Positions 4,555-55,397 of a stretch of DNA of 64,000 nt are shown one piece after another. Below the pieces are notes generated by a model. The model made no database searches. It was not told the DNA's origin and worked only from the letters and a program-made list of their open reading frames with translations. Source of the DNA: an uncultured Bacilli bacterium (GTDB taxonomy: Bacteria; Bacillota_I; Bacilli_A; RFN20; CAG-449); contig CALVJL010000006.1 in the NCBI GenBank assembly GCA_944332075.1, positions 30,862 to 94,861 of the forward strand, in the 5' to 3' direction. The position numbers and the translations under genes are program-made. Numbering within the stretch: the stretch's first letter is position 1; every line of letters starts with the position of its first letter.

Positions 4555-4559
4555 GTTTT

Positions 4560-6479
4560 TTATCCCTGCTGAGAAAGTCGAGTTTGCATCATTTCATAAT
4601 GCTTTTGTCCTTCTGCTTTCTCTTTTTTCCAGAATAATTCATCTTTTTCTTTCTTTAGCTCTGCTTTTTGCTCAAGTTTTGCTTTTTGTTCTTCGCTTAA
4701 TTTTTGCATGCGTAAATCTTGTTTAATTTTTAATTTTTCAGCTTTGATCTTTTGTTTTTCAACATTTTTTAGTTCCGTTAATTTTTGCTTTTCCTTTTTT
4801 AAAGCTAATTGTTCTAAGTGTTCATTTAATGCAGTTTGATAATCTAGATGCTTTTTATCGCATCTCTCTTTTAATTCCTTACGATATGCTTCTTCAGCTT
4901 TTAACTCTAATTCCTTTTGTTCTTCAGCTGCTCTGACTTCTGGAGCGATATACTTTTCTCCAAGTTTTTCGCAAGCTTCTTTTTGTCTCTCACGAATGAC
5001 CATTTGTTTTAAGTTAATGGTTTTCTCTACTTTAACAAAGGAAAGCATAAAGGCAAAAACTAAACCTGCAACGGCTTCTAAGCCAACAAAGAAAATAACG
5101 AAAACTGTATTAACCGCTTGAGGTTGGTTGAAAATAATTGAATAAGTTCCATCGAGATTAGTTAAAACCTTTTGCATAGCCGAGGTTAATTCCGGCTTTA
5201 TCGTTAAATTATTTTCAGGAGCGATATATCCAGCTGCCGCAATACCTCCGTTAAATAATCCCGTAACAATACCGGCTGCCGCGGTTGTAATAACTGAATA
5301 AGCTGACATCGCTAAACCATCTGTTCTAAATCCGTTTTTCCATTCCAGATGATCAAGAGCGTCGCTAAATAAGGCCATAAAAACATACGCGCAAGGTAAT
5401 CCGCCAATATTTTTAATAAATTGTCCAATTAAAACAATTACCATATTTGTCGGAGCTAATAAGCAAATAAGCGACCCTAAAGCATATAAGATAAAGCCAA
5501 CAACTGTAACGTTCTTTTTACCAAATTTTTTAGCTAATGGCCAAACAGCAAAGATACCAATTCCCATTGGAATTCCTCCAATGACTGAGACTAAAGTTTG
5601 AGTTATGCCGTCATTATAGGTTCCTAAAACATAGTTACAATAATAAGGTAAAGCAATATTTTTTAATTGAGAAGTCAGTGTATAAAGTAAGAAATACCCT
5701 AATAACAAAAGCATATATTTATCAGTAAAAATTGCTTTTAACTGTAATAAAAACGGGATCTTCTTTTCTTCTATATTCGCTGTTTCTTCCGTTACTCTTT
5801 CTTTTGTAAAATAGTATTCTATTAAAGCTAAAGGCAAAGAGATAATTGCTAAGATTCCCATAGCTAAAATCCAAATAGATTGACTAGTTCCTAAAAGAGG
5901 AATAATTAACATTGGAAAAATTAAAGCGACGATAATTCCGCTCATCATTACTGAGGCAATATTATTGAAAACTGCTAATACACCTCTTTGAGATGTATTT
6001 CTCGTTGATAGAGGAACCATCAAATTATGTGACATATTATAAATTGTATAAGAGATTGAATAATAAAGATTATAAGAGAACATGACCCAAATTACTTGAA
6101 TAGTAATTGATGCCTTTGGTACTAAAAACAGTAATAATCCAGAAATAGCAATTAATGGTGCAGATAATAATATCCACGGCCGAGCTTTACCCTGTTTTGT
6201 CTTAGTTCTATTAATAATATAGCCCATGATAACATTAGTAATTGCATCAATTATCTTGGAAATGATTGGGAAAATAACTAAAAATAATCCTCCCCAGACC
6301 TTATCAAAGCCCAAAACATCGGTATAAAAGACATTGAGATAAACTGCCATAACAGCATTGAATAATAATGCTCCGCATGGCCCTACTAAATATCCTAGCC
6401 ATTTCTCTTTGCCTTTTACATTTTGTGAATGCACTCGGCTATTAAACACTTTACTATCTAATATTTTTGCTTTCGCCAT
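4560..6479 (-). CDS. GPH-family (glycoside-pentoside-hexuronide) MFS cation symporter with a roughly 160-aa charged coiled-coil C-terminal extension
   Basis: About 12 TM segments with a GPH-like N-terminus. The last 160 aa are K/E-rich heptad-like sequence ([24 protein letters not shown]...). Confidence 0.75.
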
Positions 6480-6480
6480 T

Positions 6481-6738
6481 TTAATTTTCTCCTTTCTTTT
6501 TATATTCAGAGGCTACCTGCTCAATAGTCCATTCATCTCGCCAATTATATAAATCTTTTGAAGAGTAATAACGTACTCCCCAAGACCATATCTTTCCCTT
6601 ACCATTAGTTTTTTCTTTATTTTCACCATAAAAATAAAATGTATCATTATCAAAGAATAATGAGCCTCCATGAGCTTGAACTCGTTTTCCATCAGTATCT
6701 AATAAAATCTGACCTGGTTTAATATTTTGAGAAAACAT
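6481..6738 (-). pseudogene. N-terminal fragment (85 aa) of a GH43-family glycoside hydrolase; gene remnant
   Basis: LLDTDGKRVQAHGGSLFFDNDTFYFYGE...WGVRYYSSKDLYNW matches the first beta-propeller blades of GH43 enzymes. It ends 2 nt before the MFS start. Its ATG overlaps the GH3 stop as TAATG. Confidence 0.5.
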
Positions 6739-23142: not shown

Positions 23143-24489
23143 TTATCTAAATATAAATGTTGTTAAATAATATGGATAAGTAATTATTTCCCCAATGCAT
23201 CCAACGTTTTGCGATGTCAACTTAACTAATTTTTTTACATTATATTTTTCTTTATCTTTTAAAACGGTTTTAGCCGACCGAGTATTACCTTTGTTTGCTT
23301 TGACTTCAATAAGAGTTACTTCACCACAATATTTAGAAATAAAATCTATTTCTAAGCCACTATCTTTATGAAAATAATACATTTTTTTGCCTAGTTTACT
23401 AAAAGCATCGGCTACTATATTTTCATATATCGCTCCTTTAGCTAATGATAACTTATTATTAATTATTAAATCTGGTACATCATCTTCTAACATTGAAATA
23501 TACAATCCACTATCATTTATAAATATTTTATAAATGCCTTCATCAACAAAAGAATCAAAAGGCAATTCAAGTGACTTCAAATTATAGCATTTTGAAATTA
23601 ATCCATAATCTTCAAGCCAATCTATTGCATTTTCATATTCACGACTTTTAGCATTTTTAGCGATAACTGAGTACTGAAACTTTTGATTTTCTTTTGCTAA
23701 TTGGCGTGGAATTGAATTAAAAGTTGCTAAAATTTTGGTTTTTGCAAACTGATCAACTTTAATTTCATAATCATCATTTAAATGAGTTCCAAAATCAGCC
23801 TCGAACCCCATCAAAATTTCCTTTTGTTTTTTTCTTACTTGATTAAAATCATTAGTCTTTATGTACGTATCTACAACTTCAGGCATTCCACCGATACATA
23901 TATATTTGTTAAATAATTCCAACATTTTATTGTGAATATATATTGGAATTTGTTTTGTTTCTTTTATACATTTGATTAAGATATCTATTACTTGTTTTTG
24001 AACTCCATTGGCCCATAAAAACTCTTCAAAATCCATGGGTTTCATCTCTAAATATTCCTCAAACCCTACAGGAATACCTCTTGATGGATATTTTGTTATT
24101 CTATAATTTTTAATTCCAAGTAATGAACCAGTACATATAACATCATATCTACCATCTAATGCAAAATATTTTAAAGATGCCCTAGCGTTAGGACAATCTT
24201 GTAGTTCATCAAATATTAATACGGTTTTATTAGGAATAAATTTAATATCTTTATATTTTATAGTCAAAGCAAATGTTATTGAGTCTATATCAAAATCACC
24301 ATTAAATAATTCTTGCAAACTAACATCTTTTCTAAAATCCAATTTAACAACTGAATCATAATTTTCTTTGGCAAAAGTCTCTACGATTGTAGTTTTTCCA
24401 ATTTGTCTTAATCCTTGAATGATTAAAGGTTTATGATTTGGTTCATTTTTCCAATTTAACATTTCATTATATATTTTTCGTTTGAACAT
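23143..24489 (-). CDS. AAA-family ATPase with DUF4143-type C-terminal domain
   Basis: Walker A (GLRQIGKTT) and Walker B (VLIFDELQ), with the typical architecture of DUF4143 ATPases. Confidence 0.7.
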   Translation of the reverse strand: MFKRKIYNEMLNWKNEPNHKPLIIQGLRQIGKTTIVETFAKENYDSVVKLDFRKDVSLQELFNGDFDIDSITFALTIKYKDIKFIPNKTVLIFDELQDCPNARASLKYFALDGRYDVICTGSLLGIKNYRITKYPSRGIPVGFEEYLEMKPMDFEEFLWANGVQKQVIDILIKCIKETKQIPIYIHNKMLELFNKYICIGGMPEVVDTYIKTNDFNQVRKKQKEILMGFEADFGTHLNDDYEIKVDQFAKTKILATFNSIPRQLAKENQKFQYSVIAKNAKSREYENAIDWLEDYGLISKCYNLKSLELPFDSFVDEGIYKIFINDSGLYISMLEDDVPDLIINNKLSLAKGAIYENIVADAFSKLGKKMYYFHKDSGLEIDFISKYCGEVTLIEVKANKGNTRSAKTVLKDKEKYNVKKLVKLTSQNVGCIGEIITYPYYLTTFIFR

Positions 24490-24776
24490 AATTATTACCT
24501 GCTGATTATAGTTTACACCTTTTTATAGCCTTTATCAAACAGCATTAACACTTTTTTCTACCATATTCTATTATAGATTTACACTTTTTTCGAACTTATT
24601 TTATGGTTATCTTGCACTTTTGCCAAAATTACTATCTCAATATTTTGAATATTAAATTCTAAAAACTTTATTACTAATCGTTCAAACAGTTTATGAATTA
24701 ATAAAAAATGCAAAAATATTGATAGTTAAAAAACAAAAAATAATTTTCGACAATGATATTCAGTACTTATTCTAAT

Positions 24777-26111
24777 CTATTTATTCAGTGAAATAATTCT
24801 AAGTATATCTTCGCCATATAATTCAAATTTCTTTTCGGCAAATCCATTAATAGCAAGTAATTCTTCTTTATTTGAAGGAAGTTTTTGCACTAATTCATTT
24901 AACTGCTCATTATTAAAAATCATATAGGGTTTAATATTATTTTTAACAGCCATAGCATAACGATATGCTTTTAATTTTTGATAAACTTTGTTTCCTTCTA
25001 AAGCTTCTTTTTCTTCAACTTCTTTTTTTGAATGAGAGACAATTATATTAACAATATCTTGTCCATATAATTCAAATTGTTTTTCATTCAAAATTTTATA
25101 ATTAGATAACGTTTTAATATCTAAAGGTCTTTTTAAAATTAGTTGTTCAAGTTGATCATTGTTGAAAATATAATAAGGCTTATAATTTAATGCTTTTGAT
25201 TTGTTTGTTCGATATTCTTTTAAGCTCTCATACAAATCATCATTTTGAGGTACTTCAACTAGTACTTCTTCTTTTACTGTTTCTTGAACTTCATCAGATT
25301 TAAATATCGTTTTTTCTTCAATTTTTGTTTCCATTAATTTTAAATGTAGTTTGCTAACATAATCTGTTTCGCGTTCAACGATATGTTCTGATATGAATTC
25401 AACAACTTTTTCGAGCTGTTTCTTTTTCATATCAAAATCAGCATACATTTTATAGTATGTACTTAATTTATTTGCAATCTGATCTGTCTTAATAACTATG
25501 TCTTGAATTTCTTTAGGTGCATAGGCTTTTTTAATCATAGCTTTACTATTAGAGCAGCAAATCAATGATAAAACTGGCAATTCTCTAATAAGTTTATTTG
25601 ATACTAATAAATTTCTTAGCAAATCGCAATGTTTTTTATTTTGCATAACAGGCGAATCCATTCCCTCTTTTTTATAAACATTACCTTTTGCATCAATAAA
25701 TGATCTGACAAAATTTCCTTCACTGTCAATAGTGATATTGCCATTTAATTTTTTTGCTTCAATAACACAGATAAACTTAGGTGTAACAATTACAAAATCC
25801 ATTTGAGCTGTTACATCGTTATATTTTAAGCAAATATCATGAAAAACATATCCTGGTATGTCATAAATATTTTTTAATTCATAAGCAACTTTAGATTCAC
25901 CTTGCAATCCAATGTTAACTAAATTTAATTCTTTTAAAACAATTTCCTTTTGGTCATCACCGACTTTTAAAAGCAAATTCTCTAATTGTTCTTTTTGCTT
26001 ACAAGTTCCTTCTTCAAATGGTTTAATAAAAACCAATTTTTTTGTTTCATTATTTTCAAAAATAAAATTAAGTAAACCCATAACGCTTCTCCCCTTTGTA
26101 TTTACTTTCAC
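24777..26111 (-). CDS. NERD (nuclease-related domain) protein with two tandem C-terminal HRDC domains
   Basis: N-terminal NERD-like segment (GESKVAYELKN...DFVIVTPKFICVIEAKK). It is followed by two paralogous HRDC-like repeats (LYESLKEYRTNKSKALNYKPYYIFNNDQLEQL... and VYQKLKAYRYAMAVKNNIKPYMIFNNEQLNEL...). Confidence 0.6.
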   Translation of the reverse strand: MKVNTKGRSVMGLLNFIFENNETKKLVFIKPFEEGTCKQKEQLENLLLKVGDDQKEIVLKELNLVNIGLQGESKVAYELKNIYDIPGYVFHDICLKYNDVTAQMDFVIVTPKFICVIEAKKLNGNITIDSEGNFVRSFIDAKGNVYKKEGMDSPVMQNKKHCDLLRNLLVSNKLIRELPVLSLICCSNSKAMIKKAYAPKEIQDIVIKTDQIANKLSTYYKMYADFDMKKKQLEKVVEFISEHIVERETDYVSKLHLKLMETKIEEKTIFKSDEVQETVKEEVLVEVPQNDDLYESLKEYRTNKSKALNYKPYYIFNNDQLEQLILKRPLDIKTLSNYKILNEKQFELYGQDIVNIIVSHSKKEVEEKEALEGNKVYQKLKAYRYAMAVKNNIKPYMIFNNEQLNELVQKLPSNKEELLAINGFAEKKFELYGEDILRIISLNK

Positions 26112-26147
26112 TTAAAACTTTACATCATGTTCATTAATATTTTAAGT

Positions 26148-26744
26148 TTAATTCTTTCTTAATATTACATTAAGCCATTTTTCATTCCCTCTATTAGTTC
26201 TTACATCAAAACTTAGCTTAATATCTTCAATAATTAAATCTGTTCCTTCAACATATTTTTTTATGGAGTTTTCATCTAAATCAATATTATATCTTCCATT
26301 TCTAACGCCTTCAAAATTACCATACTTAAAAGAGCAGTACATTATGCCGTCTTTCTTTAACGCTACTGCACATTTTTCAAATGCATTAGATAATTTTTCT
26401 TTATTAATATGTAATAACGATGCACAAGCCCATATACCGTCAAATTTATCTTTAAACGTCATTTCATTAGCTTCTTGACAATATATGTTAGTAAATCCTT
26501 TTTCTTTTAATAAATCACAAAATTTTTCAACAGGATCAATACCGTATACTTCATAGCCTTTGGAAACAAAATACTCAAAATCACGTCCACTTCCAAAGCC
26601 TAAATCCAAAATTATCGCATTAGGTTTATTTAAATGTGATTCAAAAAACTGATACATCAAAGACATGTCACATTGATAAGTGCTATCGATAAATTCTTTG
26701 TAATGGTTTACGTAATATTCTTTAGTTTTATCCATATAAATCAC
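26148..26744 (-). CDS. small class I SAM-dependent methyltransferase
   Basis: Motif I LDLGFGSGRD. 198 aa, TehB/UbiE-like size. Confidence 0.65.
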   Translation of the reverse strand: MIYMDKTKEYYVNHYKEFIDSTYQCDMSLMYQFFESHLNKPNAIILDLGFGSGRDFEYFVSKGYEVYGIDPVEKFCDLLKEKGFTNIYCQEANEMTFKDKFDGIWACASLLHINKEKLSNAFEKCAVALKKDGIMYCSFKYGNFEGVRNGRYNIDLDENSIKKYVEGTDLIIEDIKLSFDVRTNRGNEKWLNVILRKN

Positions 26745-27725
26745 CTATTTAAAATCATATCTGCAGCTATTATAGAATTTATCAACATAATTATTCTCAA
26801 TTGCTTCTTCCATAGAAATTTTTAACTTTTCATCATTTAATAAATTAACCAGTTTTTTATTTCTCTCTTTTAGTCTTTCAATTACATCTTCTGAAGGAAC
26901 AATATTACTTTTTTTACTATTATTTGATTTAGTGGTTAATACTAAATTCCAAATATCATCAGAATACATAAAACTCCATGGGATAACATGGTCTACTGAT
27001 ATATCATCTGAAGCCAATTCTTTTCCGGTATAAAAATCAATAGGTTTATTGCCAGTGATTAAAATAAGAGACGAAATAAACTTTTTTAAATTATTTCTTC
27101 TAATTTCAGATTGACTGGCTCCTGCAACTTTTTTATTAATCTTAGGCGCGCTATTGTATTCTTCTAATAACTGAGCCCATTTATAGTTAAGAATTATTGT
27201 TAAAATATCTGCATAATCTATTAAATCTTTTGAATTATCTTTATTTATAAATATCTTATTATCTTTTAGATAATAGATATCACTCACTCTGCCATCTAAA
27301 TTTAAAAAGTATTTGATTGGATTTGCCTTTAGATTTACTCCTATTTTAGAAATACAAGCATCATATTCTTTTAATTTTTTCTTTCTGATTTCTGTTCTAG
27401 CTAAGTCAAACCAAATCGGATATGTAGATTCTGTTAATTTTTGATAAATAGATATTAGTTTTTTTACTTCTTCTAAAATGATAGCTTTATTTTTGCTAGC
27501 AGGTCCAGCTTGTTTAAGTTTGAAAAAATAATATTGATTCCAATAATATTTCAAAACATTCTCTGAAATATCATATAAATCAACGTAAACTTCATCATCA
27601 ACATCATGAAAAAGCTTGTTTTTTAAGCATTCAATGACACTTCTTCCAAAAGCGAGTTTATATGTTGTGACATTTTTCATTTTTTCAATGATATTTATCC
27701 ATTCATTTATGTATTTTGGAATCAT
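26745..27725 (-). CDS. HNH endonuclease-domain protein
   Basis: DHVIPWSF...NLVLTTKSNNSKKSN fits a His-Me finger (HNH) motif. Its stop abuts the start of the methyltransferase gene. Confidence 0.5.
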   Translation of the reverse strand: MIPKYINEWINIIEKMKNVTTYKLAFGRSVIECLKNKLFHDVDDEVYVDLYDISENVLKYYWNQYYFFKLKQAGPASKNKAIILEEVKKLISIYQKLTESTYPIWFDLARTEIRKKKLKEYDACISKIGVNLKANPIKYFLNLDGRVSDIYYLKDNKIFINKDNSKDLIDYADILTIILNYKWAQLLEEYNSAPKINKKVAGASQSEIRRNNLKKFISSLILITGNKPIDFYTGKELASDDISVDHVIPWSFMYSDDIWNLVLTTKSNNSKKSNIVPSEDVIERLKERNKKLVNLLNDEKLKISMEEAIENNYVDKFYNSCRYDFK

Positions 27726-28982: not shown

Positions 28983-30344
28983 CTATAGTCCTTTATATGA
29001 AATCATCCATTCGACCCATGCTTTTATAGTCGACGCTCTTCTACGAATTGTTGCTGGAGCAAGATTAATTTTCATATGCTCAATTTCATTAACAATGTAC
29101 TCTATATTAACATTTTTATTTTTAGATATAGCATCATTATAAACATCTGAAAATAATTTGTTTTCAATTAGTTGATTGTAGATATCTTCTTTGATTTTAT
29201 TTTCATCATCATAGATTGCAGTGATTCGTTCTGTATATTCTGGCAACTGATTGATGAATCTCAAATATTGTAATGCTTGCAAATAATAAAGAACTTGTCT
29301 CTCTGTTGTAAGATTCAGTTTTTCCATAATTTGTTTTTTATCTTTTAATAATTCGTTATCACAAAGCATAGCAAATTTAATAATTCTTTCCATGCTATTT
29401 GCTTGAGGAAGAATATTTTGCATACCCAAAATAATTACTTCACGTCCAGATTGTCTACCATCGCCATTTGAATTAATGCTTCTTAATGTAGACAATTTTT
29501 CAAAGAGATAAAATACTTTGTATTTAGGATCTTGATTAAACAAATTAATCACTTTTTCTGTTGCATTATTACTAATAATTACTGTAGCTCCTCGGTTTAT
29601 TGCTTTATCTAAGCTTTTCTTTAATTTTTCAAAATCTTCAAAAGTAAAACCTGACATTTGATATTTAGTAAAGCCATCGTCATCTTCATAATCATACGGA
29701 GGATCAGCATAAATAATATCTCCTCGCTCTGCTTTATCTATTGCTTTGTCATACGTTCCACACATTATGCAAATATTGTTTTGTTTATCCGAAAAATAAT
29801 TATGAATTTCTGTTAGATTATCTTTATCACAAATCAAGGGATTTTTATATCTTCCAATAGGTGTATTAAATTGTCCTTTACTATTAACTCTGTATAATCC
29901 GTTATAGCATGTTCTATTTAAAAAGATCATCCTAGCGGCCCGTTCTACATCAGTTTTGTTGGAAGGCCATCCATCATCACGATCATATTGTCTTACTTTG
30001 TAATAATAATTCTCGGCACCATCTTCATCTTCTGGATTATTTAACTTGGAATGATATTCTTGTTGATATTTAGCTAATAAATTAATTAAATCCTTATATG
30101 AATCACTTTTAATAACCGAATAAGCATTCATCAATTCGGAATTCAAATCATTGATAATAGCCTTTTGTGGATGTAAGTCAAAAAAGACGGCACCGCCGCC
30201 TAAAAATGGTTCAATGTATGTAAAGTCATTTGCTTTATCACCTTCATCATCGTTGTTAAATGACTTAGACGCTTCAATATATTCCTTAATTTTTGCTAAT
30301 ATTTGCCTCTTTCCACCAGCCCATTTTACAAATGGTTTCATCAA
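28983..30344 (-). CDS. Dam-family (alpha-class, D12) N6-adenine DNA methyltransferase with a roughly 150-aa C-terminal extension
   Basis: N-terminus KPFVKWAGGKRQ, motif I EPFLGGGAVFF, motif IV IIYADPPYD. At 453 aa it is far longer than the usual 270-300-aa Dam. Confidence 0.85.
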   Translation of the reverse strand: MMKPFVKWAGGKRQILAKIKEYIEASKSFNNDDEGDKANDFTYIEPFLGGGAVFFDLHPQKAIINDLNSELMNAYSVIKSDSYKDLINLLAKYQQEYHSKLNNPEDEDGAENYYYKVRQYDRDDGWPSNKTDVERAARMIFLNRTCYNGLYRVNSKGQFNTPIGRYKNPLICDKDNLTEIHNYFSDKQNNICIMCGTYDKAIDKAERGDIIYADPPYDYEDDDGFTKYQMSGFTFEDFEKLKKSLDKAINRGATVIISNNATEKVINLFNQDPKYKVFYLFEKLSTLRSINSNGDGRQSGREVIILGMQNILPQANSMERIIKFAMLCDNELLKDKKQIMEKLNLTTERQVLYYLQALQYLRFINQLPEYTERITAIYDDENKIKEDIYNQLIENKLFSDVYNDAISKNKNVNIEYIVNEIEHMKINLAPATIRRRASTIKAWVEWMISYKGL

Positions 30345-30370
30345 AATACCTCTTCGAAAAAATTATAATT

Positions 30371-31117
30371 CTATTTCTTTATAGTATTATAATATTCAAT
30401 CATCTTATCATAAACTAGTGTTTCTATATCTTTTTCTTCAATTACATCAAGAAATTTAACACTACCAATTCTAGAAACATATTTTGCAATACTTGGGTAA
30501 AAAGAAGCATTTTCAAATCCAATTTTTTCAACCGCTTTCTTTTCTCCTGATATAATTCCTCTAACCAGGTGCTTTTCTGATGAATAAACTCTCCAAGTTA
30601 AGTTTCTATATCTTTCAGGCAATTCAACAATCCACTTTGTGAGTTCAAATTTATCTTTTCTACTTTCATCGATAGTTAATGAAACTCTAAAAAAGCACCT
30701 GGAAAGAACACCAAACATTAAACCTCTTCTTATACCTTGTCCAAACATCCAGTGATCTCTAACTGTTGAAACACCTTTAATCTCCATCATCGATTTTGTA
30801 ACTTTATAAAATTTTTCAAAATATAGCCAAAGCCAAAACTTTTCATTAGTTATAATAAATGTAGGAAGATTCTTTAACGCATTATATAGAGTAACACTAT
30901 TTTGAAAATCTAATTTTTTATCTGAAGATTCTTTGTTTTCTTCAAGCACAAAATCTTCAATTTCATATTTTTTCTCAACAAATGGATAGTCTATAAATTC
31001 ATCTAATACCCATGAATTATCATCATTGTCTTTGATTTTATTAGCAATAACACCTAAGTTTCTTTTTAAATGTTCGTATGCTCTATCTGTCATCATTTTT
31101 ATATATATCTTACTCAT
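30371..31117 (-). CDS. hypothetical protein (operon partner of the Dam methyltransferase and GHKL ATPase)
   Basis: 248 aa with no recognised motif. It overlaps the upstream gene by 8 nt. Confidence 0.4.
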   Translation of the reverse strand: MSKIYIKMMTDRAYEHLKRNLGVIANKIKDNDDNSWVLDEFIDYPFVEKKYEIEDFVLEENKESSDKKLDFQNSVTLYNALKNLPTFIITNEKFWLWLYFEKFYKVTKSMMEIKGVSTVRDHWMFGQGIRRGLMFGVLSRCFFRVSLTIDESRKDKFELTKWIVELPERYRNLTWRVYSSEKHLVRGIISGEKKAVEKIGFENASFYPSIAKYVSRIGSVKFLDVIEEKDIETLVYDKMIEYYNTIKK

Positions 31118-32033
31118 TATCAGAATCCCCTTCTTTGTTGTTTTTTACAACATCTAAAATATTACATAGAGATGTTGCAAAAGGTTTTCCAAGTATTTCT
31201 TGTGCTATTTGAATTGGTGACCATTCAAGTATGTCATCTTTAGTTAATTCATGATTCTTTAATTGATTATATCGATATTTAATTGAATAAAACCATCCAT
31301 ATTGTGTACATATATCTTCAATATCACTAAATGTATCTAACTCAGTTAATTTTTTTATAGTTGTAAAAGCTTCTGTTAAAACTGGCACTAATAACATACT
31401 GAAAAACACTTCCTTAAAGCCAACAGAATTATATACAACTTTATAATTTTGATATTCATTTCTTGATAGGTAGATGTTAATTTTTTTGCCACCTTCATAT
31501 TTAACTTCATACATTCCATCTTCTTCAATATTATTATCAAAAGTAATATTAAAAATTGATTTTGCAACATTTTCTTCAGTCTCTAAGTGTTCGAATTTGG
31601 CAATAAAGCCATCATTGATAGCTATTAAATCATACTTATCGATTTCAAACTCCATTCCCTTGTATTCATCGCTGAATTCGTCTGAAAATAAAATAAAGTT
31701 TTCTTTAGCATATGCAAAGGAAGAAATTTCTACTTTACCATCAAAATCGTTTTTATCAAGCAGTATATTATTTCCATCTTCAGTGGATAATTCGTATGTT
31801 CTTCTAAAAACTGTGTACGAACATTCAATGACACATTTAACACCTATTAAACCATTTCTAAATAAATCTAAAATATAGTTACTATCTGTTTTAAATTTTA
31901 TATTTCTTAACAAAATACCATTTTTAGAATCAACACGTTCAAAAGATAATTCAAATATCTTATTAAAATATGATGAATTGATAATATTGTGATTGAGCAC
32001 AGGATATGGGAATAGCTTACTTCTGACTTGCAT
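31110..32033 (-). CDS. hypothetical protein (operon partner of the Dam methyltransferase and GHKL ATPase)
   Basis: 307 aa with no recognised motif. It overlaps the GHKL gene by 17 nt. Confidence 0.4.
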   Translation of the reverse strand: MQVRSKLFPYPVLNHNIINSSYFNKIFELSFERVDSKNGILLRNIKFKTDSNYILDLFRNGLIGVKCVIECSYTVFRRTYELSTEDGNNILLDKNDFDGKVEISSFAYAKENFILFSDEFSDEYKGMEFEIDKYDLIAINDGFIAKFEHLETEENVAKSIFNITFDNNIEEDGMYEVKYEGGKKINIYLSRNEYQNYKVVYNSVGFKEVFFSMLLVPVLTEAFTTIKKLTELDTFSDIEDICTQYGWFYSIKYRYNQLKNHELTKDDILEWSPIQIAQEILGKPFATSLCNILDVVKNNKEGDSDNE

Positions 32034-33966
32034 AAATTCTTACCTCACTTGCAAAATAATCATTTTGATTAGTTTTAACATCAAGATTAATTCTCTGCCC
32101 GTCTATAATATGAAATGGGCCATAATCTTTATTACTTATTGAAGAAATAGGTACTCCGTTACATGTCATACTTAATATTTCAATATTTTCTTTATTAGTT
32201 ATTTCATCTTGAATCATTATTAAATTCAAATAACAATTTTCATACGATTTTGGTGCAATAAAACTAATTCTGTACTTTCCTGATTTTTTATCTAAAGCTA
32301 TTACTTTATAACGAATTCCAGCAAGGTTTACTTTTTGCATCACTATATTGTCGCCATCTTTAACTCCGGAAGTTTCGTCTCCTTCGCCATATCCGCCACC
32401 ACTAGTATCATTGTGTCCTTCCGGATGTAAAGTATCTTCACCTTCCTCTATAGAACTTCCAACATCTGGTCGTACACCTTCGCCATCATCTTGTTCAATA
32501 TAAGCATTTCTTTCAATTTGTTTAACTTCTTTAAATGGCGAAACTTCAATTTCTTCTAAACTATTATTTTGCTTAATAGCATTATTTGTTCCTTCAATAT
32601 CAGAGACGTCTGGTAAAAATTCCCCAGCCCCATATGGATCAATTGTATTAGTATCGTCTGTCTTAAAACATTCTAAAACATATTTATCAATTTGAGATTT
32701 AATATCAGAAATGATAAAAGCCATTTCATCACGTTCAGGTTTTGGTAATCTCTTTGGTTCCCAACTATTGTGTTGTGGATTTTCAATATTTCTTAATTTT
32801 TTACCTAATTGATCTTCTCCAATAATCAATAATGCTGACACATTGAAGTTCCTTGCCAATGGATAATCAAAAATCTTCATGTATGGATATCTAATAATTG
32901 AACATTTATGAGTTGCAATCCATTTATCATCTTCTGATAACACCATAACATATAGCTCTGCCTTACCATAAGGTGTATCAATATCAAAAGTTTTAACATT
33001 ATCCATGTCATTAGATAAAATCTTATATTGTGATAATAAATAAGGTTTTTTCTTATAGTTGACAAATGTTTGATTGTTAATAACATCCAAAAGTGTATCT
33101 TTTTTTATTTCTATATTGGAAATCTTAATAATTAAATTATTTTTAAATATGCTTACCATAAATGATTCGAGTACACTATTTAATATTTCAATTGACCAAT
33201 CATTTTCTTTATTTAGACCCAATATAAAAATATCTGTGCCGTATTGTTCTGATCTTCTAAAAAAATCACAGTCCAAAGAGCATAAATCAGTCAAAGGATC
33301 ATTTATTTCATTTCTTGTGTAATAGCCTTTTCCTTGAGTATAATCTCTGTTTGGATTTTCAACATCATCATCACAATAACCAGAAATTAAGTCGGCTACA
33401 CCAACTGAACCTTTTTCATTATCTTTTGTTATAGTTGAGTAAAAAATCATTGATAACTTAGATAGCAAAAATGCGGCATTTTTACCAACACCTTTTGAGC
33501 CACCAGCATTATCATTAGATTTATCTGAAACGCCTGTAGATCTTGTTAATGCCAAAAAGTTGTTATTTTGTCCATCATTAACTCTACTAATCCCAGTTAA
33601 TCCCGTTGTATTAAAATCACTAATTCTTAAACACTCAATTTTAGGGCAATTAAGATAATTAAGTATCTTGTTGTATTCCTGATAGAATTTTGGTTGAGAG
33701 TCTTTCCAATATTCCATGCATCTTCTAATTGCAGTTTTATAACCACCAATATCTGGAATATCATTTGGATTAATCTTAAACAATTTAAATTCTACAGTCA
33801 CTGGTTCTTCATCAGAAAATCTAGCATCTATTGAATTTTGTATAATTTCACGACCGAAGTTACCAAAAGGATTCTTTTTAAATGTTTCTGTATCACCAGA
33901 AGTCATTCCAGTTCTCTCACCATGATTACTAGGAGCAAATCTCCATTTTAAATTATCTTTTTCCAT
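32017..33966 (-). CDS. GHKL-superfamily ATPase, MORC/Hsp90/MutL-like
   Basis: N-terminal Bergerat-fold motif I ETFKKNPFGNFGREIIQNSIDA, near-identical in pattern to the Hsp90 ETF...REL(I/V)SNASDA motif. Glycine-rich SKGVGKNAAF follows. The remaining roughly 400 aa are uncharacterised. Confidence 0.6.
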   Translation of the reverse strand: MEKDNLKWRFAPSNHGERTGMTSGDTETFKKNPFGNFGREIIQNSIDARFSDEEPVTVEFKLFKINPNDIPDIGGYKTAIRRCMEYWKDSQPKFYQEYNKILNYLNCPKIECLRISDFNTTGLTGISRVNDGQNNNFLALTRSTGVSDKSNDNAGGSKGVGKNAAFLLSKLSMIFYSTITKDNEKGSVGVADLISGYCDDDVENPNRDYTQGKGYYTRNEINDPLTDLCSLDCDFFRRSEQYGTDIFILGLNKENDWSIEILNSVLESFMVSIFKNNLIIKISNIEIKKDTLLDVINNQTFVNYKKKPYLLSQYKILSNDMDNVKTFDIDTPYGKAELYVMVLSEDDKWIATHKCSIIRYPYMKIFDYPLARNFNVSALLIIGEDQLGKKLRNIENPQHNSWEPKRLPKPERDEMAFIISDIKSQIDKYVLECFKTDDTNTIDPYGAGEFLPDVSDIEGTNNAIKQNNSLEEIEVSPFKEVKQIERNAYIEQDDGEGVRPDVGSSIEEGEDTLHPEGHNDTSGGGYGEGDETSGVKDGDNIVMQKVNLAGIRYKVIALDKKSGKYRISFIAPKSYENCYLNLIMIQDEITNKENIEILSMTCNGVPISSISNKDYGPFHIIDGQRINLDVKTNQNDYFASEVRIYASQK

Positions 33967-34307: not shown

Positions 34308-35051
34308 TTATTTTAATCTTTGCCTATAAAAATCATCAAGCAAACTCAAAGAAATACGATAATTTTTCAAATTTTTTGGTTTATTTATTAATATACGTTT
34401 CAATTGTTCAATAATTTCATCGCGCATCTTTGAAAAAATATAATAATCATCTAAGACAAGTATATTGTCATATCCTTTCTTTATATATAATTTTGGACAT
34501 ATTTTTTGATTAATTGCTATTAACTTTTGCGCAATAAAATTTATTTCCTCTTGTGAGTATGAATGCGTAAAACTTACGTACTCTTTAAAATCTTTTATTG
34601 TCTTTTCTTCATAGTAATCAAGTACTTCTCTTTTTTCACCTTTAGGCATCCGATGAATATACAATTCACATGTAGAAAGATCGACATTCCATTCTTTAAG
34701 CAAAAGCTGAATTGTCCAAAGCGAATGAATCGATGTATGATTAACATTTATAAAAAGTCCATAATCAAACTCCTTGTAATTACTCTTTTGCACTTCAGAA
34801 AAAACATCTTGTCTTCCCCAATCATTTTTTATATTCAAAAGTTCTTCTTTTGATTTAGGTGACAGCTTATTTAAGTATTTTGCCAAGGAATATATCATGT
34901 TGTTATAGGATCCAACTTTATGATAGTAAGTCCCAACTTTTATTGAATAAGGTGAAGAAAATTCAAAGCCAAACTCTCTAGTAGATAAGTCAACTTTATA
35001 GACTCTTTTACTGCCAATATATTTTATTTTGTATTTTTCTTCTATTGTCAT
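34308..35051 (-). CDS. hypothetical protein
   Basis: 247-aa ORF. No motif recognised. Confidence 0.35.
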   Translation of the reverse strand: MTIEEKYKIKYIGSKRVYKVDLSTREFGFEFSSPYSIKVGTYYHKVGSYNNMIYSLAKYLNKLSPKSKEELLNIKNDWGRQDVFSEVQKSNYKEFDYGLFINVNHTSIHSLWTIQLLLKEWNVDLSTCELYIHRMPKGEKREVLDYYEEKTIKDFKEYVSFTHSYSQEEINFIAQKLIAINQKICPKLYIKKGYDNILVLDDYYIFSKMRDEIIEQLKRILINKPKNLKNYRISLSLLDDFYRQRLK

Positions 35052-35457
35052 AATTTTCCCACTTTTCTTTTAATTATCACTTTTTAATAATGATATTTAC
35101 CCCACTATTGATTATTACTTAAATTCATTTTACCACTGCTATATCATATATCAACATGAGTTTCTTATATATTTTATTTATAAGCATTTAGTTTTAGACC
35201 ACCAAATTTACACATAGATTGATGCATTTTTTACTATACATTTTTTCAAAATGTGTGAATTTTCTAATAATCAAGCGCTGTAAATATTGATATAAAAATG
35301 CAGTTTTACGGTGAAAATGTCAGTTTTCTACAATTATTTCAACAAGTACAATATATTTATATTATAGAACATTGAAATTTGTTTTTGCTGAAGTTTAAAT
35401 TTATTATTAAAAATTATTATCAACAATATATGTACATAGAAGATATCAAAATTTATA

Positions 35458-36162
35458 TTAATTGCTTTGCCTTTTTAATTTATTTGCACATAGCACTTTC
35501 ATTACCGATTTATCATCAAATATCATATCGTTTGTATTATTTAAGCAATCAATATAATCATTCTTTATTTCTTCATATAATTCTTGATCAAATAGTTGAC
35601 AAAAAGAATTTGGTTTCCCATCTTCAATAACATCAAAAATAACAGCTAAATTACCATCGTCATCATAACAAAGATAAGAATCTTCTAGTTTTGGTAAATT
35701 ATTTTCTTTTGCATACTCTTCATACTGTTTTGCCATAATATATCTATAAATTGAAGCTATACGATGATCTAAATTATTCTCTAAAGCCACAACTTTTTCT
35801 CTAGCTAAAATTGTTGTAGTAGCACCTGTTTTTATATATAAAGATGTATCTATGTCTTTATCATTATAGTAAAAATTATAGACATCACTTAAAGATCCAA
35901 ATTGAACTATAAAGTGTTTCTTTTGATTTATATATTTTAATGGATAAGGTACAAAATGGATATGTCCGCAATAAGGGCATTTAAAAATAAACAATTCATC
36001 AAAGATAAACTTTTTTCTTAAATCATAGTCTTTATCCCCATCAATTAAATCATACACTTTAACAAAGAAGTTTCTCTTACATTCCTTACATGTCATCATT
36101 TTTATTTTACTAATCGACATTTTATTCTCCTTCATTATTTTTACATCTTTTTTTAAAGTCAT
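35458..36162 (-). CDS. zinc-ribbon protein (CxxC...CxxC), hypothetical
   Basis: CKECKRNF...CPYCGH near the N-terminus. Its 5' end overlaps the vWA gene by 41 nt. Confidence 0.45.
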   Translation of the reverse strand: MTLKKDVKIMKENKMSISKIKMMTCKECKRNFFVKVYDLIDGDKDYDLRKKFIFDELFIFKCPYCGHIHFVPYPLKYINQKKHFIVQFGSLSDVYNFYYNDKDIDTSLYIKTGATTTILAREKVVALENNLDHRIASIYRYIMAKQYEEYAKENNLPKLEDSYLCYDDDGNLAVIFDVIEDGKPNSFCQLFDQELYEEIKNDYIDCLNNTNDMIFDDKSVMKVLCANKLKRQSN

Positions 36163-36781
36163 TATCTATTGTTTTTCTCCAAGCACTTGAGAGCTTTTTA
36201 TCAATTCTTAAAGAATCAATAGCAAAGCCTAATGCACAATAATTTAATGAAACCCCGCTGCTATCATTTTTATAATTGACCGCTTGTTTTTTATCAATTC
36301 CTAATCTAGATGCTTCTTCTTCTAAATCAATGTTTGCTCCGATAAAAATAAACTCATAACCATTTTTCTCTTTTGATTCTGATATCATCTTTTTAATAGT
36401 GGGGTAATCATATTCTTTTGAAGAATTTTCCATTCCGTCTGTAACAATCATGAATAATGTCTTACTTGGACGTTCTTTCTCTGTTAATGAGCTCTGCACA
36501 TTTTTAATATGATTAATTGTTTCGCCAATGGCATCTAGCAAGGCTGTGCAGCCAGATACTCGGTATTCTTTATTTGTTAATTCTTTTATATCTTTGATAT
36601 TGACTCTATCATCAATAACATTTATCGAATCATTAAAAAGTATAGTCGAAACAATAGTATCTAAATTATTTTTTTGCTTTTCAATTAAAGAATTAAAACC
36701 GTTAATCGTTTCTTTTTCTAGCCCAGCCATTGATCCGCTTTTATCAATGATAAAAACTAATTCAGTTAAATTTTCGTTCAT
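36122..36781 (-). CDS. von Willebrand factor type A (vWA) domain protein
   Basis: MIDAS motif DKSGSM (DxSxS), with the conserved T (TALLDAIG) and D (VTDGMEN). Confidence 0.75.
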   Translation of the reverse strand: MNENLTELVFIIDKSGSMAGLEKETINGFNSLIEKQKNNLDTIVSTILFNDSINVIDDRVNIKDIKELTNKEYRVSGCTALLDAIGETINHIKNVQSSLTEKERPSKTLFMIVTDGMENSSKEYDYPTIKKMISESKEKNGYEFIFIGANIDLEEEASRLGIDKKQAVNYKNDSSGVSLNYCALGFAIDSLRIDKKLSSAWRKTIDNDFKKRCKNNEGE

Positions 36782-36954
36782 GATTTACTCCTTTTAGATA
36801 GTAAAACTATCTATTATGATATTAGTTAAAATCAGACTGAATTTGGTAACTTTGAAAACGACTTTGATATAAGTTAAATCATTATTAAAACTAACTTTTT
36901 CATAAAAAATGCAACCAGACCTAAATCTGATTGCTTATAAAAAAATAACTCTTT

Positions 36955-37437
36955 TTATTTAAAAATTCTTAACTTTAATTTATCTAACACGATATTTAAA
37001 TCCATCATGCTGTATTCTTTATTCTCAATAAAATATTCAACTACTAATTCCCTTTTAATTGATGGCGATAAAGTGTATCCAGCCATATTTAACAAATTTA
37101 AAGTTTCATCAATGTTTAGCTTTAAACCAATACATAACCTAATCGCTGTATCTTTATCAGGGTGATAATTCTCATCACTTCTAATTTTAGAAAATGTTTG
37201 TTTAGTTACTCCGCAACGTTTATAAACATCTGAATCTTTATATCCTTTTTTATCGATAAGTGCAAATAAGGCCTCTTGCCAGGTCTTAGATTTTCTTGCC
37301 AAAATTCTTTTCTTTAATTCTTCAAATTCCTCAAAATCACATCCATTGACTGGCATTTCATTTTTATGATTGCGATGGACAAAATTCTCATCTATATATT
37401 GTTTTATTTGTAATAATTTTTTGTCAGAGATGCTCAT
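36955..37437 (-). CDS. helix-turn-helix DNA-binding protein
   Basis: GVTKQTFSKIRSDENYHPDKDTAIRLCIGLKL matches an HTH_3-like helix-turn-helix. Confidence 0.45.
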   Translation of the reverse strand: MSISDKKLLQIKQYIDENFVHRNHKNEMPVNGCDFEEFEELKKRILARKSKTWQEALFALIDKKGYKDSDVYKRCGVTKQTFSKIRSDENYHPDKDTAIRLCIGLKLNIDETLNLLNMAGYTLSPSIKRELVVEYFIENKEYSMMDLNIVLDKLKLRIFK

Positions 37438-37551: not shown

Positions 37552-38115
37552 TTAAAAATTATCACCTAAATCTTGATAATTAAAATCTCTATTTTTCACA
37601 TTTTTTGAATAACGTGCTTCAAAAGGATTTACATAAAATTCTGTATGAAAATCAATATTCAATTTTTCTAGCAAACTTTCAAGATTAATCAGTAATTTCG
37701 TAAATTCTAAATATGATATTTTTCGATTAAATATATCATCATATATACTTATTAATTCTTTTAATGCTTCATCATCTTTATCATTGTTATACTTTTCATG
37801 CATAAAAATAGCCTCTTTTAATGAATAATATTTATCTTCAATCTCATCAAACTCAATAAATAATGTATTTATTAAATAAGTTGGAATTAATAATTCAAAT
37901 AGATATTTACAAAGATCTTCAATAGACTCTGAGTGAATCCAATCTTCAACAAATGGTGAACACATAAATGGTGGAATATTCATTACATCTATCGTATAAA
38001 AAACCATAATACTATTTTCATTTATTTTCACATGAGCATTTTTATCTATTAAATCTAAACTTTCCATATATCGCCTTTCTTTATTAACTAATAAGCAAAC
38101 CGATAAGAGAAACAC
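37552..38115 (-). CDS. hypothetical protein; the annotated GTG start lies inside an inverted repeat, so the real start is probably the internal ATG
   Basis: 187-aa ORF. MESLDL... begins 16 codons in and follows an aaagaaagg RBS. Confidence 0.3.
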   Translation of the reverse strand: MFLLSVCLLVNKERRYMESLDLIDKNAHVKINENSIMVFYTIDVMNIPPFMCSPFVEDWIHSESIEDLCKYLFELLIPTYLINTLFIEFDEIEDKYYSLKEAIFMHEKYNNDKDDEALKELISIYDDIFNRKISYLEFTKLLINLESLLEKLNIDFHTEFYVNPFEARYSKNVKNRDFNYQDLGDNF

Positions 38116-54783: not shown

Positions 54784-55226
54784 CGTTTTTTGCGAAAATA
54801 ATTACTTATAATTAATGAGCATTTCTCATCCGGGAGATAACTCACTAACGGATAATGATTGAGATTGCTTAAAGAATTTATATCAAAAAAAGTACCAAGC
54901 GCACCGGTTTTTAATGACTTAGCCCCATAGATAATCCGTTTCACATGTGCTTGCTGCAAGGCTGAAGCACACATTAGACAAGGTTCTAAAGTCACATATA
55001 CTTCACAGTTATCTAGCCTCCAAGAATTTAATTTCTCCGAGGCTTTTTTCATAGCCTCAATTTCAGCATGGCTAATAACTGATTTATTTTTCTCTCTTTG
55101 ATTGTATCCGCGAGCGATTATTTCATCATTTAAAACGATGACGCAACCAATTGGCACTTCATCAATCTGCTCAGCTTTTATAGCTTCTAGATATGCTTGC
55201 TCAAGATAATACTTATCGTCTTTCAT
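54780..55226 (-). CDS. tadA: tRNA-specific adenosine deaminase
   Basis: CDA fold motifs HAEIEAM and PCLMCASAL. 148 aa. Confidence 0.85.
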   Translation of the reverse strand: MKDDKYYLEQAYLEAIKAEQIDEVPIGCVIVLNDEIIARGYNQREKNKSVISHAEIEAMKKASEKLNSWRLDNCEVYVTLEPCLMCASALQQAHVKRIIYGAKSLKTGALGTFFDINSLSNLNHYPLVSYLPDEKCSLIISNYFRKKR

Positions 55227-55231
55227 AAAAA

Positions 55232-55318
55232 TAAAACCACCGCACAGACAATGTTTGCTTAAGGCTGCTACATTCCTGTCCTGACCTGGTTCACATCATT
55301 GAATCGCGATGGCATTAA
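55232..55318 (-). ncRNA. ffs: signal recognition particle RNA (small 4.5S type)
   Basis: Minus-strand sequence ...GAACCAGGUCAGGACAGGAAUGUAGCAGCCUUAAGCAA... matches the conserved SRP RNA domain IV core (E. coli ACCAGGUCAGGUCCGGAAGGAAGCAGCCAAGGCAG). The flanking arms pair (CCAUCGCG with CGUGCGGUGG, CAAUG with CAUUG) into a closing helix. Ends are approximate. Confidence 0.65.
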
Positions 55319-55397
55319 TATCATAAACAAAGACTGATCAAATAACAATTATTTTTAATTTCATTTTGTTATAATAATAGCGATGTGAGGTAAAAAT

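Follow-up and report, generated by a model that had tools for sequence, protein, structure and literature searches.

We analysed a stretch of 64,000 nucleotides from an uncultured Bacilli bacterium (contig CALVJL010000006.1, positions 30,862 to 94,861; in its whole length referred to as the window) with regard to three genes on its minus strand, which encode, in this order, a helix-turn-helix (HTH) protein, a small von Willebrand factor A (vWA) protein and a zinc-ribbon protein. A preliminary description of this locus, made from the sequence, had read the latter two genes as a recurring two-gene module with an HTH gene next to it. Coordinates given below are those of the window, and the related loci used for comparison are cited by their L numbers.

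The three genes and their products

The HTH gene, an open reading frame (ORF) read from the sequence at 36955..37437 (minus strand), codes for an XRE/Cro-type protein of 160 amino acids, termed HTHc in the following, that matches Pfam HTH_26 with 24.1 bits (cutoff 22). It is located 173 nt upstream of the vWA gene on the same strand, as had been described. The vWA ORF (36122..36781, minus strand) encodes a stand-alone protein of 219 amino acids with a match to Pfam VWA (PF00092; E 6.6e-8, 33.4 bits, cutoff 23.8). The complete MIDAS (metal ion-dependent adhesion site) noted earlier was confirmed: residues D13, S15, S17, T79 and D115 of the DxSxS...T...D motif are all present and do not vary among 14 aligned homologs. 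With the AlphaFold2 (AF2) model of this protein (pLDDT 92.3), Foldseek returned integrin I-domains and CMG2 at a probability of 1.0 (E ~1e-8), and ArnB was among the top matches. The protein furthermore matches phrog_7371 (E 9.5e-50) and has more than 7,770 homologs; a relative is encoded by 525 contigs of IMG/VR as well as by 220 deposited phage genomes.

The zinc-ribbon gene had been given as an ORF of 234 amino acids (35458..36162, minus strand) that overlaps the vWA gene by 41 nt. This is the longest form of the ORF, and the overlap probably is an artefact of choosing it. A ribosome-binding site (RBS), GAAGGAG, can be read within the 3' end of the vWA gene (36127..36133, minus strand) and stands, at 36133-36127, 6 nt ahead of an ATG at position 36120. 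The MSK... N-termini of homologous proteins line up with this start, and the shorter form was also listed by the source gene caller (P0303). Thus, the protein most likely has a length of 220 amino acids, and its gene likely extends over 35458..36120 on the minus strand. The ATG then starts 1 nt past the TAA stop codon of the vWA gene (36124-36122), and the two genes would abut rather than overlap, an arrangement that is still compatible with the translational coupling proposed previously.

The encoded protein is, as had been missed earlier, a member of the named Pfam family CpXC (PF14353; E 1.9e-16, 60.6 bits, cutoff 25.4, profile positions 2-117 of 121). The CxxC pairs ascribed to it are present (C11xxC14 and C48PYC51 in the numbering of the 220-residue form), and none of the four cysteines varies among 55 relatives. 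Its AF2 model reached a pLDDT of 95.8 and a pTM of 0.91. Comparison of this model with the PDB by Foldseek gave nothing below E 0.4 and no likeness to ArnA; a single unnamed viral protein was found as structural relative (TM 0.75). A full HMMER scan yielded 1,993 CpXC relatives, whereas none were found in IMG/VR, deposited phages or PLSDB plasmids. The closest relatives are long forms of 514-546 amino acids, which show 37-47% identity over the shared 220 residues. Recent truncation of such a long form as the origin of the window protein was considered and rejected: about 220 amino acids is a common and complete architecture of CpXC proteins, and tblastn finds no downstream remnant of a long-form C-terminus.

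Sequence searches of the PDB with the vWA and CpXC proteins gave no matches. For none of the three proteins was a PADLOC v2 match obtained, NCBIfam gave nothing useful, and among the PHROGs only families of unknown function were hit, together with weak matches of the HTH protein to transcription regulators.

An intrinsic-terminator-like hairpin with a stem of 10 pairs, followed by ATTTTTTATG as its T-run, is located between the HTH and vWA genes (36911..36934, minus strand). Because of this hairpin, the HTH gene is probably transcribed separately from the vWA gene, which weakens the reading of all three genes as one operon. In L005 and L126, similar GC hairpins with T-runs were seen, by eye, 3' of the HTHc gene. 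Between the hairpin and the vWA gene, the 14-nt direct repeat TTTAACTWATATCA occurs twice, 48 nt apart (36817..36878, minus strand). The repeat has two matches in the window, and at least two were obtained in 7 of 100 shuffles. It is kept only in the sister locus L003 and is absent from L004, L005 and L126; a conserved operator was rejected on this ground, and the repeat is named here, with low confidence, as a candidate operator.

Partners of the vWA and CpXC genes at other loci

The neighbourhoods of 84 vWA loci, all independent and outside this lineage (the viral ones include many near-duplicates), and of about 46 CpXC loci drawn from reference genomes, metagenomes and contig look-ups were compared with the locus in the window. 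A CpXC gene was found within about 6 kb of the vWA gene at none of the 84 vWA loci, and a vWA gene within 5-8 kb of the CpXC gene at none of the ~46 CpXC loci. The nearest vWA homologs, with 63-68% identity, have no CpXC gene alongside, and the nearest CpXC homologs have no vWA gene. Among vWA clusters at 90% identity (n=48), HTHc was encountered in 26, a Macro domain in 22 and an ADP-ribosylglycohydrolase (ARG) in 13, as compared to none for CpXC. Judged from these neighbourhoods, vWA and CpXC adjoin each other in this bacterial lineage alone, and the recurring two-gene module of the preliminary description was not borne out.

The true conserved partner of the vWA protein, as far as gene order tells, is instead the upstream HTH protein, which had been regarded as a mere neighbour. 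HTHc homologs are encoded at 53 of the 84 vWA loci, at 30 of these directly upstream on the same strand. At 45 of the 84 loci the protein is a Macro-HTHc fusion, with homologs of about 335 amino acids in prophages and integrative and conjugative elements (ICEs). The Macro domain of these fusions is N-terminal (PF01661, E ~1e-41), and the HTH protein of the window aligns end-to-end with their C-terminal ~160 amino acids. By this alignment, HTHc corresponds to the Macro-HTH proteins encoded ahead of vWA in prophages and ICEs, minus their Macro domain. Downstream of vWA, the neighbour met most often is ARG (PF03747, E 1e-37), which is present at 23 of the 84 loci, directly 3' of the vWA gene in 17 cases. 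Markers of integrative elements found near vWA comprise relaxase, MobC, a Y-family polymerase with a YolD-like protein, serine recombinases and Rep_trans. A short HTHc followed by vWA and lacking Macro or ARG, as in the window, recurs in no fewer than three further types of element (L004, L005-8 and L126).

A triad of Macro-HTH, vWA and ARG genes recurs in prophage and ICE contigs of IMG/VR (L022-L073; for example at L064:4912-5919 and 6001-6654, with ARG coming next), where it adjoins relaxase/MobC, Y-family polymerase/YolD and serine recombinase genes. A Macro-HTH/vWA/ARG triad did not turn up in our searches of the literature.

Two further ORFs flank the three genes. The first, located at 37552..38115 on the minus strand, encodes 187 amino acids (cluster c29) and has no Pfam, PADLOC or PHROG match. 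Homologs with 38-45% identity are encoded 5' of HTHc-vWA in L004, L005-8 and L126-128, which makes this ORF, by its recurrent position, a conserved companion of the HTH-vWA block. In L004 and L126, a gene for a DUF2130 protein is situated between the c29 homolog and HTHc, and in L004 (3276-4718) a gene for a 480-residue DUF2828/DUF7788 protein is inserted between HTHc and vWA. The second ORF comes after the CpXC gene (34308..35051, minus strand; 247 amino acids) and has no family match. It shows 27.6% identity over 243 amino acids to an ORF at L009:9723-10663, which lies 3 kb 3' of a long-form CpXC gene in a metagenome-assembled genome (MAG) of the Erysipelotrichaceae. From this single instance, a loose association of the ORF with CpXC appears possible.

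For the long-form CpXC proteins, a Macro-domain protein is encoded directly beside in 6 of 7 clusters, and an ARG in 2. The order is ARG, CpXC and then a Macro protein with a C-terminal match to the HTHc profile in L009, and Macro, ARG-Sel1 and then CpXC in L101/L124. In L119-123, L129 and L130, the gene of an AAA-AAA-Trypsin_2-Macro protein of about 1,300 amino acids is followed after 71-81 nt by that of a CpXC protein of 515-546 amino acids. This pair (for example L129:125-4042 and 4122-5759) is found in defence-island contexts; PADLOC v2 reported only partial IetA/DolB ATPase matches for it and none for its CpXC protein. The AAA-AAA-Trypsin_2-Macro protein and the long CpXC protein may represent an unlisted candidate system. 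ARG is also encoded near two short-form CpXC genes (L010 and L117). On one independent contig, a c29-DUF2130-HTHc-vWA block and a Macro protein-CpXC block are located 13.6 kb apart, and the genes between them code for a type III-like restriction-modification system (methyltransferase and Res endonuclease) and an SNF2 helicase.

A gene for a WG-repeat protein of about 740 amino acids comes after the ~220-residue CpXC gene in L010, L012, L013, L016, L017 and L020. These loci are mostly from Bacteroidales, L010 being from a Spirochaetaceae MAG. The WG-repeat gene of L012 and L013 is followed in turn by one for a NERD-protein kinase, and upstream of the short CpXC genes of this group a YobI-like NTPase or type I restriction-modification genes are present. 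This neighbourhood represents another conserved setting of the CpXC family.

Genomic setting and interpretation of the locus

The segment from 22 to 40 kb of the window has a GC content of 24-30%, compared with about 33% in its flanks, and thus forms a low-GC island. The flanks are chromosomal, as indicated by the gene of the bacterial small signal recognition particle RNA at 55223-55320 (minus strand; Rfam RF00169, 57.8 bits). The conflict or mobile-element setting assumed in the preliminary description was supported by the genes of the island. A complete PADLOC candidate defence system, PDC-M33 A/B/C, is encoded 1.5 kb downstream of the CpXC gene (28983-33966, minus strand; PDC-M33 A has 649 amino acids and an E of 3e-138, and PDC-M33 C is a DUF6339 protein), and a Dam-type methyltransferase fused to DUF7226 comes after it. 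Further conflict-type genes at 23143-27725 (minus strand) code for an AAA_14/DUF4143 ATPase (23143-24489), which is the only ATPase near, a NERD-HRDC protein, an S-adenosylmethionine (SAM) methyltransferase and an HNH_4 protein. The latter shows 37% identity over 105 amino acids to the product of an HNH gene located 3' of vWA in L005-L008. A Pfam scan of the neighbouring genes between 20.8 and 43.6 kb found no kinase, PP2C phosphatase or MoxR, in agreement with what had been stated before. ARG and Macro genes are absent from the 64-kb window; ARG was sought with a hidden Markov model built from 17 ARG neighbours.

On balance, we lean towards the view that the locus is a stripped-down, lineage-specific set of non-catalytic parts from an ADP-ribose (ADPr) network of mobile elements. 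Since relatives of both vWA and CpXC are encoded beside ADPr enzymes, the two genes would derive from one ADPr-processing network. The gene orders suggest that HTHc (with or without Macro), vWA, ARG and CpXC form one association network with the edges HTHc-vWA, vWA-ARG, ARG-CpXC and CpXC-Macro, the direct edge between vWA and CpXC apparently being confined to this lineage. The conserved unit would be HTHc followed by vWA, and the full version in Bacillota prophages and ICEs would consist of Macro-HTHc, vWA and ARG. In Macro-HTHc, a Macro domain that presumably binds or hydrolyses ADPr would be joined to the same DNA-binding domain as that of HTHc in the window, and the CpXC protein of the window would be the short form of proteins whose longer relatives adjoin Macro proteins or ARG. 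HTHc may repress or tune a vWA-CpXC operon. The vWA protein could clamp an exposed acidic target peptide, possibly of an ADP-ribosylated protein, via its Mg2+-loaded MIDAS, and CpXC, co-made from the abutting RBS-coupled gene, could act as a second adaptor. Because no Macro, ARG, ADP-ribosyltransferase (ART), kinase or protease is encoded in the 64 kb, the module would here only bind or sequester its target or rely on enzymes encoded elsewhere. The adjacency of vWA and CpXC would be of recent origin inside the defence island and dispensable.

We think a bolder version of this view quite unlikely. According to it, vWA and CpXC would be interchangeable and sometimes cooperating target-recognition adaptors of a mobile-element network that senses or reverses ADP-ribosylation and includes Macro-HTHc, ARG and AAA-trypsin-Macro proteins. 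At the present locus they would make up an enzyme-free sensor or decoy complex under the control of HTHc, shielding element or host against toxins or defences that act by ADP-ribosylation.

Several observations weigh against a derivation from an ADPr network. The link to ADPr rests wholly on relatives with 25-68% identity, and the window itself encodes no ADPr enzymes. At 28 of the 84 vWA loci, no HTHc, Macro or ARG is found near vWA; short-form CpXC genes mostly have neighbours of other kinds, in Bacteroidales the WG-repeat protein and the NERD-kinase; and the likeness of the C-terminal region of the long CpXC forms to SseB_N (E 0.0028) and to Sigma70_r4_2 (E 0.015) is sub-threshold for Pfam in both cases. 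Furthermore, the trio HTHc-vWA-CpXC recurs on several contigs of the lineage and is intact in most of its assemblies. The ratios of nonsynonymous to synonymous changes (pN/pS) in a comparison of the window with the sister locus, 0.35 for vWA and 0.27 for CpXC with 0.12-0.26 for neighbouring genes, point to purifying selection on both genes, and the pair may thus have a function of its own.

The last two observations also speak for a dedicated complex of vWA and CpXC, with the zinc ribbon bound to the vWA protein; this would be a new minimal module for defence or anti-defence, and HTHc would regulate it. Such a complex would fit the abutting genes with the CpXC RBS inside the 3' end of vWA and the location in a defence island. 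Binding of a zinc finger to a vWA protein has a precedent in ArnA-ArnB (PDB 8s05; PMC12852372), and the ADPr-linked neighbours common to both families make a functional link between them plausible. We nevertheless regard a dedicated complex as rather unlikely, given that the adjacency recurs at none of the other vWA and CpXC loci compared, not even at those of the nearest homologs, that the CpXC model resembles neither ArnA nor any other PDB entry and that PADLOC gave no match. In sister strains, moreover, the two genes have been inactivated independently of each other. The sister locus (L003:2480-3840), which is 97.7% identical in nucleotide sequence to positions 35440-36800 of the window, carries a GAG-to-TAG nonsense mutation at codon 143 of vWA, and its CpXC gene has lost 1 nt from an A-run, which shifts the frame; other assemblies of the lineage show independent truncations that hit only one of the two genes.

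These lesions also count in favour of a further explanation, that of a decaying mobile-element remnant with no current function, which would have lost Macro, ARG and the C-terminus of a long CpXC form and whose remaining genes would be drifting. The absence of every catalytic partner agrees with such a decay, as does the accessory nature of the genes, whose clusters at 90% identity have 11-13 members, compared with 46-78 for the flanking core genes. In the window, however, the genes are intact and have a good RBS, and their pN/pS values are well under 1. The recurrence of short HTHc and vWA genes unaccompanied by Macro or ARG in other element types, as well as the complete CpXC architecture with no trace of a longer C-terminus downstream, speaks likewise against a remnant, which we therefore take to be rather improbable.

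Comparison with known and predicted systems

Stand-alone MIDAS vWA proteins with a proposed role in peptide capture are also part of the TerY-type and MoxR-vWA ternary systems (Kaur et al. 2020, eLife; PMC7159879). The vWA protein of the window shows a sub-threshold likeness to the vWA-TerF-like (E 0.007) and CoxE-type vWA (E 0.0009) profiles, and some of its homologs carry the source label 'YegL'. A variant of the TerY-phosphatase-kinase triad or of a MoxR-vWA ternary system is nonetheless extremely improbable. The partners that define these systems, a kinase and a PP2C phosphatase for TerY and a MoxR AAA+ protein (with VMAP, iSTAND or FtsH) for the other, are absent from the locus: neither kinase, PP2C phosphatase nor MoxR ATPase was present among the window neighbours scanned, the Pfam-scanned recurrent neighbour families or the gene tables of the related loci. 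The earlier placement of the locus outside these systems is thus upheld.

A likeness also exists to ArnA (zinc finger-FHA) and ArnB (vWA) of Sulfolobus and to the Sec23/24 core, where a zinc-ribbon protein is encoded beside the MIDAS vWA protein it binds; in the window, too, a zinc-ribbon gene stands beside a MIDAS vWA gene. However, ArnA acts via its FHA domain and the ArnC kinase, and no FHA or kinase domain is found at the locus of the window; the beta-sandwich and C-terminal domains of ArnB are both missing from the vWA protein.

With regard to CpXC, literature searches turned up no account of a function. An example of the family is orf1 at the left end of the Streptococcus pyogenes prophage Phi1207.3 / Tn1207.1, which encodes a CpXC protein of 218 amino acids (PMC4260502, Table 1). 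It shares with the window protein the two CxxC pairs, the length of about 220 amino acids and an occurrence in Bacillota mobile elements. The right end of Phi1207.3 carries orf58, a putative ADP-ribosyltransferase toxin gene (PMC4260502, Table 1), and orf1 and orf58 would adjoin in the circular form. Compared with other PF14353 proteins, that of the window belongs to a subfamily whose members mostly have 514-546 amino acids with extra C-terminal domains.

A further similarity is that to the 'ARG-centric' systems that were predicted to act against ADP-ribosylation (Iyer, Burroughs, Anantharaman & Aravind 2022, Viruses 14:1977; PMC9503650, section 3.8). These were proposed to join an ARG to a regulator made of a sensor and an HTH, to a chaperone that binds peptides (vWA, SseB or TY-Chap) and to variable Macro or NADAR domains (PMC9503650). 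Stand-alone vWA proteins have thus already been placed in predicted ADPr-removal systems, as proposed peptide-binding chaperones (PMC9503650, section 3.8); CpXC is unmentioned there. If the network outlined above exists, it would provide a first functional context for the widespread Pfam family CpXC, and the same context for the small vWA proteins of phages and ICEs, namely the handling of ADPr where mobile elements and their hosts are in conflict. The 2022 prediction, itself made from sequence only, would then be extended to Bacillota mobile elements with a Macro-HTH regulator. The locus in the window, being reduced and free of enzymes, makes a poor point of departure for experiments. The more interesting leads would be the related loci, that is, the triad of Macro-HTHc, vWA and ARG and the pair of AAA-trypsin-Macro and long CpXC proteins.

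As in the ARG-centric prediction, ARG occurs together with a one-component sensor-HTH regulator and a stand-alone vWA protein in relatives of the locus, long CpXC relatives with a weak SseB-like region are encoded beside Macro and ARG, and parts are swapped among related loci. In contrast to the prediction, the sensor in these relatives is a Macro domain rather than Nudix or WYL, no phosphatase is present, and the carriers are prophages and ICEs of Bacillota and not actinobacterial or proteobacterial chromosomes. Of the predicted components, the window contains the chaperone in the form of vWA and lacks an ARG gene and a sensor-HTH fusion. Overall, the comparison suggests that the locus is a reduced version of the predicted ARG-centric kind rather than a new dedicated two-gene system.

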